DNA of 64,000 bases, taken from NCBI RefSeq assembly GCF_030013595.1, contig NZ_CP122768.1, one strand, 5' to 3'. Of this stretch, positions 11,510-56,234 are shown in pieces. Numbering within the stretch: position 1 is the first letter of the stretch; every line of letters starts with the position of its first letter. The DNA is from Escherichia coli (GTDB lineage: Bacteria > Pseudomonadota > Gammaproteobacteria > Enterobacterales > Enterobacteriaceae). A program made the translations under genes and the position numbers. Under the pieces are notes generated by a model, which saw only the letters and a list, made by a program, of their open reading frames with translations, searched no databases and was not told the origin of the DNA.

Positions 11510-11775
11510 AAGGAGTCCCTCCGCACTGTCTGAAACAGTACAGAAATGTCTTCAGGCGTGGCGAAGCCTTACCTGAAGGTAATAAAGCTGAGCAGGGACG
11601 TTAAAACGTCACGGCCTTACGCATCCGGTAACGCCGTGAAAAGACGGGCTTACCGGAAAAGTTTTAATCTCCGTCGAGGGAGAGGCGTGGGATCAGGTTC
11701 CATATAACCTCCGGTAAGTGAAAAAAGCGCCGCAAATAATAAGGAGAATCCAATAATATTCGTAGCATCTATGGC
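11510..11775 (-). promoter_or_regulatory. mgtA 5' leader (Mg2+/proline-sensing leader RNA) containing mgtL
   Basis: Long untranslated leader between PhoP-type promoter and mgtA start, with proline-rich leader ORF. Confidence 0.7.
11650..11703 (-). CDS. mgtL: mgtA leader peptide (17 aa, [17 protein letters not shown])
   Basis: ATG at 11703 and TAA at 11650 on minus strand. Confidence 0.85.
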
Positions 11776-28725: not shown

Positions 28726-28762
28726 AGTTTCCCCCGTTGTAAAGCGTGCGCCAGATAAGACA

Positions 28763-28855
28763 CAACTGCGTCGCATCAGGCATCTCGCACAACCGCCGGA
28801 TGCGGCGTGAATGCCTTATCCGGCGGCCCACAAGTCGGCATCAGGCATTGATGCC
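28763..28855. repeat. REP/BIME repeats between ytfR and ytfQ
   Basis: gccggatgcggcgtgaatgccttatccggc and flanking gcatcaggc units. Confidence 0.6.
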
Positions 28856-38385: not shown

Positions 38386-38559
38386 TTTTCATTTATCAGC
38401 AGTCTGAATTTTAACCCTCTGGCGGCTTTACAGTACCTTACGCTATACTAGCCACTGAAAATGCCGGTTCACTTTCTTCGAATCGGCTTTCAATGTGTAT
38501 TTCACACAAATTAATCAACTTCCCCTTCCGAGGATCTGGCCTGAAAGGTCGGATAAGAT

Positions 38560-42530: not shown

Positions 42531-42719
42531 TTCTCCACCTCGTCTCTGTGAGCGGTGTTAACTTATTGTTTTACTTATACCCTATCGTTAATGAATGCGC
42601 CAACTGTGATAGTGTCATCATTTTCAAAGCGTAAAATTGTGGCATTCTTCACTGTTCTATAAGTAAGACGTTTATTCTCCCTTTTCTTTCGTATTCCCGA
42701 TGATAAAAGGATGTCCCTG

Positions 42720-50339: not shown

Positions 50340-50556
50340 CGTATTTCCTTTCTTAGGGTATAAAGTAGCGGGCAGCATATCAGCCACACTTCTTTGGGTA
50401 AAACTTTGTCGCGGGAATGATGACAAATCCCGGGGAAAAAGAAACAATAGCAATATCCCGTATGAATATAATAAAGGCGGGTTTACCACGGACATCATAG
50501 CGTTAGCTTATTCATAGGCTATGATTGAGGAACAAGACGCGGAGCAGGAGGAAACC

Positions 50557-51195
50557 ATGCCCGGGCGCTTTGAACTAAAACCAACCCTGGAGAAAGTCTG
50601 GCACGCGCCGGACAATTTTCGCTTCATGGACCCGCTGCCGCCGATGCATCGTCGGGGGATCATTATTGCCGCCATTGTATTGGTAGTCGGATTTCTGCTT
50701 CCATCTGATGATACGCCCAACGCGCCGGTGGTGACGCGTGAAGCGCAGTTAGATATTCAGTCGCAATCACAACCACCGACAGAAGAACAGCTGCGGGCGC
50801 AATTAGTCACGCCACAAAATGATCCTGATCAGGTGGCTCCGGTCGCTCCAGAACCAATACAGGAAGGCCAGCCAGAAGAGCAGCCGCAACCCCCCCAAAC
50901 GCAACCATTCCAGCCAGATAGCGGAATTGATAATCAATGGCGCTCTTACCGTGTCGAACCCGGTAAAACGATGGCACAGCTGTTCCGCGACCACGGGCTG
51001 CCCGCTACCGATGTCTATGCAATGGCGCAGGTAGAAGGCGCGGGTAAGCCGCTGAGTAATTTGCAAAACGGGCAGATGGTGAAAATCCGCCAGAACGCCA
51101 GCGGCGTGGTGACGGGCTTAACCATTGATACGGGGAATAATCAACAGGTCCTGTTTACCCGCCAGCCGGATGGCAGTTTTATTCGTGCGCGGTAG
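50557..51195 (+). CDS. ytfB: OapA/LysM-domain cell-division-associated protein (212 aa)
   Basis: ORF track 50521..51195 trimmed to MPGRFELKP; Pro/Gln-rich linker. Confidence 0.85.
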
Positions 51196-51295
51196 ATGAA
51201 GGGTCAACCAGAAGCCAGCTAAGGAGCGTCTCTTTGATGACCTTACGTCTGGCTTCCAGTGCCTGGGGGGAAACCATACTGATGTGTTGACATCC

Positions 51296-51317
51296 TCCAC
51301 GCCCTGAAGGACGTGGA
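51296..51317. repeat. Subterminal hairpin of the IS element (tnpB-distal end; shared core GCCCTGAAGGACG)
   Basis: tccac-gccctgaagga-cgtgga; 13-nt core identical to the hairpin at 52998-53017. Confidence 0.6.
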
Positions 51318-51329
51318 TCCCTGCTACGT

Positions 51330-52538
51330 TCAGGCTGTCGCCTGAATCATTTCGGTGGGTTCCTGCTTCAACGAGCGGCCTGACTGCACCATCTCTCCAC
51401 AGGCAAGAACGGCGTGCCCCGCCGCTAAAATGTTACGAGCGCCATTTACATCGGCGTTCGCTGTATATCCACATACCTGGCATCTGAATTTAATTTGTGA
51501 CAGGCGATTTTCTTTCGCTGTATGACCACAGCACGCGCAACGCTGGCTTGTGTACGCTGGCGGAACAGCAAGCACCTGACCGCCACGCCAGAGCTGCTTG
51601 TACTCAAGCTGGCGGCGCATTTCATACCAGCCCTGATCCAGTATCGAACGGTTTAAACCTGATTTTGCCCGGACATTGCGCCGCGGCTGGCTGACCGTAC
51701 CCGCTGCTGACTTTGACATGTTGCTGACCTTCAAATCCTCAATGACTATCATTGCGTGGTTTTTGCTGACGGTCGTTGTGACTTTGTGAAGGTAGTCCCT
51801 GCGGATATTTGCGATACGGGAATGCAGTCGCTGTATTTTGCGTTTCTGCTTCTGCCAGTTATTGCTGAATTTGACCTTGCGGCTTAACTGTCGCTGAAGT
51901 CTCGCCAGCTTCTTCTGTTTTTTCTGAAAACTGTTTACAGGCTCAAAGACTGTGCCATCTGACAGCGTGGCGAGTTTAACCACGCCAGCATCCAGCCCGA
52001 CCATTGATGCTGAAGGATGAACCGGAGTTGATACTTCACTTTCTGTCTGAATACTGATGTACCACTTACCGCAGGACTGGCTGACCGTGACATTTTTCAC
52101 AACACCCGTGACCTGACGGCTATTCCGGTAGCGCATCCAGCCCAGTTTCGGCAGAAAAATACGGCTGTTTTCCTGATAGAGCTTAACGCCCTACGGGTAG
52201 CGGAATGCATCATTCTGTCCCCGCTTTTTGAATCGGGGAAAAGCAGCCCGCTTCTGGAAGAAGTTTTTGTAAGCCCGCTCAAGGTCTTTCAGTGACTGTT
52301 GCAATGGCTGTGACGGGGCATCTTTAAGCCATTGCGTTTCAGTGGCATTTTTCCACTCAACCAGCCAGGAAGCCATTTTCCCGTAAGGGATGTATTTATT
52401 ACCGGCCTCATGATTCTCATTCTGAAGCGCCAGAGCACGATTGAAAACGAAACGACATGCGCCTGCGAAGCGCCTCATTTCACGCTCCTGTTGACCACCG
52501 GGTCTTAACTGGAATTTAAATGCCTGTCGTCGTTTCAC
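51330..52538 (-). pseudogene. tnpB: IS605-family TnpB (RuvC-like RNA-guided nuclease family), interrupted by one in-frame TAG
   Basis: ORFs 52191..52538 and 51330..52136 share one frame; my hand translation across the gap gives ...DAFRYP-stop-GVKLYQENSRIFLPKLGWMRYR...; C-terminal Zn ribbon CACCGH...CQVCG; RuvC-like D/E/D residues. Confidence 0.8.
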
Positions 52539-52608
52539 AGGTCAAATGATACTTTGGTCTGTGAAAAAAGAAACCTATATCCGGCGTGGAAGGTATTGTG
52601 TTTTCCTG

Positions 52609-53020
52609 ATGCATGTTCACCTGGTCTTTGTCCCAAATACCGACGCCAGATTTTTGACCATGACGCGACAGAAAAACTACGCACTTACTTTTCAAATGTA
52701 TGTGCTGATTTTGAAGCTGAACTGGTTGAAATGGATGGCGAACCAGATCACGTCCATTTGTTAATTAAATATCCTCCCAAACTGGCGATATCCAGTCTGG
52801 TAAACAGCCTCAAAGGCGTATCGGGTAGGTTACTGCGACGAGATCGACCAGATATTGCAGTCAGGTATTACTACAAAGGCGTTTTGTGGAGTCCTGGCTA
52901 TTTTGCCAGTAGCTGTGGAGGTGCGCCAATATCCGCCATCCGTCAATCCATTGAACAACAGCAAACACCTGGTCAGGTGGAAAACCGCGCCGTATATCCC
53001 CGCCCTGAAGGACGGGGTTT
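52609..53020 (+). pseudogene. tnpA: IS200-type Y1 (HuH) transposase TnpA, -1 frameshifted near N-terminus
   Basis: MHVHLVFVP in one frame, then KYRRQIF...DHVHLLI... (HuH motif) in another; switch within gtcccaaatac homopolymer context; no in-frame stop until 53159, so C-terminus undefined. Confidence 0.7.
52998..53017. repeat. Subterminal hairpin of the IS element (tnpA-distal end)
   Basis: cccc-gccctgaagga-cgggg; same loop and core as 51296-51317. Confidence 0.6.
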
Positions 53021-53033
53021 TACGGCACACCGG

Positions 53034-53357
53034 ATAAACCAGGCCAAGCGTATGCTGGTTGATCAAATAATATCCCCCAAGCGCAGCAATATTAATATAC
53101 ACCTGCAATGGGTCGATATCTGGCTTAAAAATATTGTGTTTCTTCCCTTCATCCAATAAGGATTCCATTAACTGCAAGTGCGCATGATTAATTTCTAAGA
53201 GACGCTGTGATTTTACATAATGCACACCTTTACTTTGGTTTTCACTATGCACAATTTTTAAAAACCAAGGATTAGCAATATAATATATCCTAGGTAAAAT
53301 CGATGATTTTTTCAATGGCTTTTTGTGGCTGGTTAACCTGCTGATTAACAAACGCAC
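53034..53357 (-). pseudogene. ytfA: Truncated ORF, N-terminal about 108 codons, ytfA-like; C-terminus replaced by IS sequence
   Basis: 175-codon ORF 52830..53357 whose last third is antisense to tnpA; identity with K-12 ytfA is from positional memory only. Confidence 0.45.
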
Positions 53358-53603
53358 CGATACCGACAGCGTAGAATAATTACATACCGCACAACAAGAA
53401 TGTATGGTGTAAGGCGTTGTCAGTCATCTCCCTCCCTGGGTGCATCTTTATATCCGTGATGAGCGATTTTTGATATTAATATCTTTTACTATCCGCTATT
53501 TTCACCACTTCAGAAAACAAACTTATTTTTATTAATATCGATTATTTATTCTGTGCACATTCAGCTGCGATATTTATAAAAAAATTAAACAGGCAAAAAT
53601 ACA

Positions 53604-54398
53604 ATGACATTACCAACCACTATTTATTCATTTCCTGCATATTCACCCCGTTTTTCGTCCACCGACAAACCAGTAAAATTAAAATTTCATCAATACGCAC
53701 GCGCTACATTACTTTCAAATCGAGGAAGAGATCATAATTGCGATGGCAGACATACTGTTGAGATCCACAAACTAGATCTCTCAGGCTGGCAAGCATTCAA
53801 TAAGTTAGCGACGAGGTGTAATGCTTACGATGGAATAACAATGAATGGTGATAATTCTTTTGGATGGAACCATGAAGCTACATTAGATAATATTCACGCC
53901 CAGAAATACAATAAAGCTTACGCGGGTGCGAGGTTAACCGCAGAACTGAAATATTTATTGCAAGATGTTGAATCCTTCGAACCCAACAGTAAATACACAA
54001 TACACGAGGTTGTTTTGGGACCTGGTTATAGTACTCCAGACTATACCGGCCAAACGATAGGATACGTTGTAACCCTTCCTGCCCAAATGCCTAATTGCTG
54101 GTCATCTGAACTACCAACAATCGATCTTTATATCGACCAACTTCGCACTGTTACAGGCGTTTCTAATGCCCTCGGATTCATCATTGCTGCATTGCTAAAC
54201 GCGTATTCTGATTTACCCCATGATTTGAAAATTGGTCTGCGTTCCTTATCAAGTTCAGCAGCAATCTACTCGGGTTTGGGTTTCGAGCGAGTGCCGCAGG
54301 GCCGAGACATAAGGTGCGATCGTATGCATCTAACGCCAGCAAACCATCCTGAATTATGGACACAAGAGAATGGTGAATGGATCTACTTGCGAAACTAA
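53604..54398 (+). CDS. yjfZ: Uncharacterised protein YjfZ (264 aa)
   Basis: ORF track; AT-rich gene with long AT-rich upstream region. Confidence 0.85.
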   Translation: MTLPTTIYSFPAYSPRFSSTDKPVKLKFHQYARATLLSNRGRDHNCDGRHTVEIHKLDLSGWQAFNKLATRCNAYDGITMNGDNSFGWNHEATLDNIHAQKYNKAYAGARLTAELKYLLQDVESFEPNSKYTIHEVVLGPGYSTPDYTGQTIGYVVTLPAQMPNCWSSELPTIDLYIDQLRTVTGVSNALGFIIAALLNAYSDLPHDLKIGLRSLSSSAAIYSGLGFERVPQGRDIRCDRMHLTPANHPELWTQENGEWIYLRN

Positions 54399-55512: not shown

Positions 55513-55926
<414 letters not shown>

Positions 55927-56234
55927 TTATTCAGCCTCCTGTCTGGGTCAGCCGAATCCCGGGGAGGCAAGGAACGTGTTAAAGGTCGGCTGAAAAATGA
56001 CGCATTATAGTACTGACATACCCTGCTAAACTCAAGGCCAGCCGACAAATAAATCTCATCTTTCACCAAATCGTACTAACACGCTGATTTGAAGTTCATC
56101 ACACTTCATCATGGTGTTTTTTTGAACAACTGCATCAGAAATGGTCACCATCAACTTCTTTATCATTGATTAAAATTAAATCAGAAGATCATCACAGAGG
56201 AGAGCACACAAAGTCAGCCGTCGAGGAGGTATCT

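Follow-up and report, generated by a model that had tools for sequence, protein, structure and literature searches.

An apparently inactive IS609 copy inserted 3′ of TTTAT in the ytfA pseudogene of Escherichia coli

The segment that separates ytfB (ending at 51195) from yjfZ (starting at 53604) in the stretch of E. coli DNA analysed here, which is 64 kb long and is called the window, raises the question of what mobile element it holds, where that element begins and ends, and whether it could still move or produce an RNA-guided nuclease. A first-pass annotation of the window had described a decayed IS200/IS605-family element with a TnpB-family gene, about 1.75 kb in length, at 51280-53040. This description is borne out and the element can be named IS609 through the curated K-12 copy, in which insQ is tnpB; the element stands as proposed, with its exact ends corrected to 51287 and 53033. 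Our reading, to which we give a probability of roughly 0.93, is that window 51287-53033 is a vertically inherited, now inactive IS609 copy, inserted 3′ of TTTAT in a ytfA pseudogene. IS609 is catalogued and present in most E. coli genomes (it and its relatives have been reported in >90% of them, PMC9956272), and the mechanisms of TnpA and TnpB are established for close relatives. The element at ytfA and the way it works are thus already known, and this is an ordinary copy with no departure from the known system. Its significance lies mainly in annotation: a precise map of the ends, target motif, predicted guide and lesions, which describes the locus as an inert relic with ytfA disrupted.

Window 51287-53033, on the minus strand, is a complete IS609 copy of 1747 bp. 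The alignment with the curated 1748-bp K-12 copy (insQ/yncK, NC_000913.3 1503161-1504908) spans 1748 columns, shows 97.4% identity and needs a single 1-nt gap, so that the two agree in length to within one base, and the termini of the window copy coincide with those of the K-12 mobile_genetic_element feature. Both run from CCGGTG... to ...GGATGTCAA, the tnpB-sense strand of the window element finishing ...GGAGGATGTCAA on the same bases as its K-12 counterpart. Independent copies on plasmids and at other chromosomal loci lose similarity at precisely the equivalents of 51287 and 53033. Because of these match limits and the empty site in K-12 described below, the element can be set at 51287-53033 with the minus strand as its top strand, in the order TTTAT target, left end (53033), tnpA, tnpB and right end with TCAA (51287). 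The K-12 copy likewise has TTTAT as its 5′ flank and divergent tnpA and tnpB genes, and it lies at a different chromosomal site. The two copies also differ in their lesions: in K-12 insQ, annotated as a putative RNA-guided DNA endonuclease, is intact and an internal stop makes tnpA (yncK) a pseudogene, whereas in the window tnpB carries Q116* and tnpA carries a frameshift and a Tyr-to-Ser change. The window element is thus a member of IS609 and of the IS200/IS605 family.

The insertion site could be observed directly, since the K-12 ytfA locus is the exact empty site, GGTTTAT/CACATCAG. Read in the tnpB sense this is GGTTTAT/CACATCAGTATGG, and the window element sits exactly between the two halves; the comparison with an empty site in a related strain that the first-pass annotation had proposed is therefore available in K-12. 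There is no target duplication, and the insertion is clean after TTTAT with a 1-nt G ambiguity between the window and the K-12 empty site. The TTTAT target, a TAM-like motif, occupies 53034-53038 on the minus strand, directly 5′ of the left end, and is kept in the K-12 empty site. The location originally given for the element, between ytfB and ytfA, proved wrong. Strain HH45 has an uninterrupted 215-aa TetR-family ytfA that overlaps the ytfB 3′ end, and its protein aligns to both window flanks with a break after about residue 180; RefSeq annotates TetR/AcrR-family fragments on either side of the element, both for a sister copy and for the copy in strain HCP5S3_I2, which is identical to that of the window. 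An intergenic insertion was rejected because both flanks align to this one continuous gene of HH45, and the HH45 protein together with the RefSeq fragments places the insertion inside a ytfA pseudogene. In the window the C-terminal fragment of this TetR/AcrR-family gene lies at 51179-51286 (minus strand), overlapping the ytfB 3′ end, and the middle fragment, residues ~83-180, at 53034-53328 (minus strand), where it is 5′-truncated (residues 1-82 are gone) and frameshifted. Upstream of ytfA (window 53330-53604), the window and K-12 both have yjfZ (DUF2686) next to a 5′-truncated ytfA, while in HH45 (locus L006) the intact ytfA adjoins a 3-ketoacyl-ACP reductase gene. The differing gene content indicates that an older rearrangement removed the 5′ end of ytfA.

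A guide RNA had been proposed at the 3′ end of tnpB and the adjacent right end (~51285-51400), and a conserved structure with covariation is indeed found there. The predicted omega (right-end) RNA scaffold occupies about 51287-51456 on the minus strand, its 5′ limit being approximate, and takes in the final ~125 nt of tnpB together with the 43-nt right end. When the terminal 170 nt of 27 enterobacterial copies are aligned, the consensus fold has 47 pairs, with 98.4% of cells paired and compensatory changes at 8 pairs, although the 5′ two-thirds of the conserved structure is coding and protein constraint also limits variation there. On four of five measures the observed value was reached by 0 of 500 column shuffles; on the fifth, the number of further pair types, the alignment did not exceed them. 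Pairing drops to 38-48% when the partners are slid by 1-3 columns, and in all extracted copies the flanking sequence differs from the first base beyond TCAA. Covariation in the terminal hairpin could reflect the DNA hairpin needed by TnpA instead of an RNA. The conserved structure as a whole fits the scaffold of an omega (guide) RNA, and it resembles the structured RNA region at the tnpB 3′ end and right end of ISDra2, which takes its guide from the flank (PMC8612924), the RNA of IS609 being a predicted one.

The covariance-model search over 50500-53800 at a relaxed threshold gave three sub-threshold Rfam matches and nothing else, and all three fall at 51274-51457 on the minus strand: RAGATH-18 (29.5 against a gathering score of 44.9), HgcC (23.9 against 50) and sot0042 (17.1 against 88). 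The original descriptions of all three families place them at the 3′ ends of tnpB-like genes. The search thus pointed to the expected place, but nothing inside the element reached a gathering score, and the RNA therefore cannot be placed in a curated family. A promoter and terminator scan of 51100-53300 did no better than shuffled sequence. The RNA-coding right end and the element ends are still intact in the window copy.

Directly after TCAA, in flanking ytfA DNA, we predict a 16-nt guide, CACATCAGTATGGTTT, at 51271-51286 on the minus strand. Its position and ~16-nt length are taken from work on the ISDra2 TnpB (PMC8612924), and its reading follows a published homing model (bioRxiv 10.1101/2023.03.14.532601). 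The predicted guide is an exact match to the K-12 empty site, directly after TTTAT, and has one mismatch to strain HH45; no other close match to it was found in the window. At the occupied site the guide-matching DNA is preceded by GTCAA, not TTTAT. The target motif of ISDra2 is TTGAT, in contrast to the TTTAT of the window IS609. From the ISDra2 precedent we infer that an omega RNA would be expressed, that its guide would be 16 nt long and that TnpB would cleave with TTTAT as the required motif.

On the model of IS608 and ISDra2, the TnpA of an intact IS609, a Y1 HUH transposase, would bind the subterminal hairpins of the top strand and cut 3′ of TTAY on the left and 3′ of TCAA on the right, and the element would travel as a circle of single-stranded DNA. 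The tnpB 3′ end and the right end would give rise to a structured RNA, extending ~16 nt into the flank, which would direct TnpB to cut the resealed empty site, recognised by TTTAT and a match to the guide, so that the element would be copied back by recombination. A more speculative set of ideas builds on this mechanism. The orphan guide RNA of the window copy might still be transcribed and be loaded by a plasmid-borne IS609 TnpB that cuts ytfA-empty alleles on incoming DNA, or it might have a host small-RNA role; separately, defective IS609 copies might be mobilised in trans, as the presence of the tnpA frameshift haplotype at other loci may mean. We regard these ideas as improbable.

The reading of the window element as inactive depends on its two genes, which are divergent as the first-pass annotation had them, tnpB on the minus strand at 51330-52538 and tnpA on the plus strand from 52546. 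The similarity of both products to the TnpA and TnpB families is clear from Pfam and NCBIfam matches for each. The tnpB (insQ) pseudogene, recognised from its open reading frames, family profiles and alignment to ISDra2, has 402 codons with the lesion Q116*. Two minus-strand ORFs, 52538-52191 and 52136-51330, are one frame broken by a single TAG, which arose from CAG at 52193-52191 in comparison with a sister copy at the same locus whose tnpB is open; the window tnpB is accordingly not an intact coding sequence, and it has a further nine missense changes relative to that sister copy. In the RefSeq annotation an identical copy elsewhere also has its tnpB labelled with an internal stop. If the stop is translated as Gln, the Pfam profiles OrfB_IS605 (8.4e-35), Cas12f1-like_TNB (9e-24) and HTH_OrfB_IS605 (8.1e-14) recognise the product, which also scores 388 bits against NCBIfam guided_TnpB (cutoff 100). 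It is homologous over its full length to the TnpB of ISDra2 from Deinococcus radiodurans (1.5e-55 against structures 8bf8 and 8exa), and the RuvC residues D183, E267 and D363 and the zinc-finger cysteines C334/C337/C353/C356 are all retained and aligned with their ISDra2 counterparts, in agreement with the zinc ribbon and acidic residues noted at first sight. Unlike that of ISDra2, the TnpB of the window copy is truncated.

Could such a truncated TnpB still function? A protein restarted at Met135 (ORF 51330-52136, 268 aa) could in principle act with the omega RNA and leave the window copy partly active. The 268-aa ORF is real and holds D183, E267, D363 and the four cysteines, but it lacks the N-terminal 134 residues, which align full length to the ISDra2 TnpB and include the HTH_OrfB_IS605 domain. 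The N-terminal region of TnpB holds its RNA-binding and motif-reading parts. Nor does the scan of 51100-53300 mentioned above give a promoter or restart signal for the shorter form. The dN/dS values of tnpB, which rest on small counts (6-16 synonymous differences), are 0.32-0.43 in comparisons involving the window copy versus 0.12-0.22 among intact copies, which is consistent with relaxed constraint on the window tnpB and argues against continued TnpB activity. We therefore consider partial activity very unlikely. A list of purified orthologues in one report (PMC12781874) includes an IS609 TnpB. A 672-bp contig of Herbiconiux daphne (L045), which we take to be an actinobacterium, also encodes part of a TnpB, with 88% identity to the protein of the E. 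coli type; assembly contamination looks more likely here than a real occurrence.

The tnpA pseudogene (52546-52970, plus strand) encodes a Y1 HUH transposase and has a 1-nt deletion and a Tyr-to-Ser change, with no stop codon within the element. Its frame-corrected product matches Pfam Y1_Tnp (3.4e-39) and NCBIfam transpos_IS200 (136 bits, cutoff 55), and the HVH motif is found within HVHLL. The plus-strand frame from 52546 shifts near 52632, where one A has been lost after 52632 (a -1 frameshift), and the tnpA of an identical copy in another strain is labelled "frameshifted" in the RefSeq annotation. The codon of the catalytic Tyr has become one for Ser (TCC, 52947-52949), giving IRQSIEQQ here versus IRQYIEQQ in sister copies, and the sister copy at the ytfA locus keeps the Tyr. 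In an alignment to the homologous TnpA of IS608 from Helicobacter pylori (6.4e-19) the window Ser lies opposite the conserved Tyr of VKQYIENQ, and the nucleophile of that enzyme is Y127 (PMC3201880). The window copy thus has neither the open frame nor the catalytic tyrosine of an active TnpA. Each gene had been credited with a single inactivating lesion; this is true for tnpB, whereas tnpA has two. Because tnpB stops at codon 116 and tnpA is frameshifted and without its catalytic tyrosine, we conclude that neither protein can be made from the window copy.

Further features of tnpA concern its end and its start. In the window subgroup, which also contains L002 and L004, tnpA has no stop codon within the element, and its frame (52546-53159) crosses the left-end hairpin into the flank, so the C-terminal tail of the protein depends on the insertion site; a plasmid copy that is 93.6% identical (L003) has a normal 138-aa tnpA. 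The RefSeq label "missing C-terminus" was rejected for this gene, as the whole coding sequence is present and only the in-element stop codon is absent. The genes of IS608 run in the same direction, unlike those of the window IS609, where the GTG start of tnpB (52538) and the ATG start of tnpA (52546) diverge 7 nt apart. Both start codons lie within the span of an inverted repeat of 14 nt, TTTCACAGGTCAAA / TTTGGTCTGTGAAA (window 52533-52566), which is possibly a shared regulatory site or an RNA structure.

The history of the insertion and of its lesions can be followed in other genomes. In a set of 5426 complete E. coli genomes, the exact right-end junction at ytfA was found in 1745 and the uninterrupted empty site in 3247. 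A 61-nt stretch with the tnpB TAG is identical in only 4 of 4860 matching records, among them two isolates from pigs whose element is 100% identical to that of the window. For the tnpA deletion, a 60-nt stretch carrying it is found unchanged in 212 records, and the deletion also occurs in a copy at a different locus (L004, E. coli 64A:C). From these counts the insertion is an old polymorphism and the tnpB stop is lineage-specific, while the tnpA frameshift either goes back further or is common to several copies. The original impression of recent decay thus holds for the tnpB stop, which is rare and probably young, and not for the tnpA frameshift, so that decay has not been uniformly recent. 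The shared tnpA deletion haplotype suggests either that copies have undergone gene conversion or that a defective copy has been mobilised in trans. The closest genome has IS609 at a single place, with no helper copy evident. In strain VCSW5 the TAG haplotype lies at NZ_CP082355.1 1410732-1410792 (~1.41 Mb), away from its ytfA-locus copy (~4.22 Mb).

The wide occurrence of the identical insertion, in those 1745 genomes, could also be taken to mean that the ytfA-locus IS609 has been domesticated, the host keeping TnpB and its RNA for a function of its own, as with the nuclease-dead regulators derived from TnpB. In favour of this, tnpB is intact in sister strains and the dN/dS of the reference copies among themselves is as low as given above. 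Yet the catalytic residues are kept, not lost; IS609 moves freely, being found on plasmids and at other loci in many genera; the 3247 genomes with an empty site do well; tnpB is dead in the window; and the guide matches the element's own empty site, as expected of selfish homing. Domestication is thus very doubtful, and inheritance of an inactivated IS609 copy remains the preferred reading.

The ends of the element carry subterminal imperfect hairpins at 51296-51316 (right) and 52997-53017 (left). Two hairpins with an identical core had been noticed beforehand; the hairpins are there, and the core, CGCCCTGAAGGACG, is 14 nt long rather than 13. The two bases that differ between the hairpins form a compensating pair (A-T vs C-G), and each hairpin, as single-stranded DNA, folds more stably than its shuffled counterparts (z = -3.0 and -2.4). 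The left end (52990-53033, minus strand) has its stem-loop at 52998-53017 with AAAA 5′ of the hairpin foot, and at the right end (51287-51316, minus strand) the hairpin (51297-51316) is followed by AGGATGTCAA and the end finishes TCAA (51290-51287). The hairpins are short, GC-rich and in or near intergenic DNA, as generic repeated extragenic palindromes with coincidental boundaries would be, but the chance of this is negligible: they are missing from the K-12 empty site, they accompany the element in different genera, always equally far from its termini, and their 14-nt core occurs at just these two places in the 64-kb window, where the first-pass annotation had asked whether such hairpins are common independently of IS elements. 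No further IS609 ends or close guide matches were found across the window either. The window element has the end features of the IS200/IS605 family: its hairpins are subterminal, terminal inverted repeats and target duplication are absent, and it lies 3′ of a conserved tetranucleotide.

These ends resemble those of IS608, which also has subterminal imperfect hairpins at both ends and inserts 3′ of TTAC/TTAY without duplication. In IS608 cleavage takes place after TTAC on the left and after TCAA on the right, 10 nt from the hairpin foot, and 4-nt guides adjoining the hairpins read both sites (PMC3201880); the right end of IS609 likewise finishes TCAA 10 nt after the hairpin foot. A scan of a genome collection gave 67 loci encoding relatives of the window TnpB. 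All 29 extracted right ends (26 related loci, the window, K-12 IS609 and one plasmid copy) finish in GGAGGATGTCAA, a motif with a single occurrence in the window, and all similarity between their flanks is lost from the following base. Among 22 left-end sequences (the window, K-12 IS609 and 20 related loci) TTAY stands 5′ of the left end in 20, and T is found at -5 in 18. Covariation links the final base of the target to the base that immediately precedes the left hairpin foot (TTAT/AAAA in 10 cases, TTAC/AAAG in 5, with 3 exceptions), so that the two are concordant in 15 of 18 left ends across genera (L008-L054). The 4-nt guide 5′ of the left hairpin thus varies with its target in the IS609 group as expected of IS608, and this covariation gives in-silico support for IS608-type target recognition in the group, next to a conserved guide-RNA scaffold. 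There are also differences from IS608: the IS609 group has TTAT as its target more often than TTAC, and 16 nt separate the left cleavage site from the foot of the hairpin in the IS609 copy here, vs the 19 nt reported for IS608.

Elsewhere in the window, Rfam matches above the gathering score are the ES239 sRNA (42597-42719), an Mg riboswitch (11603-11718), the RpsF leader (55906-55990), STnc450 (38441-38498) and naRNA4 (28749-28825), which are ordinary enterobacterial features unrelated to IS609.
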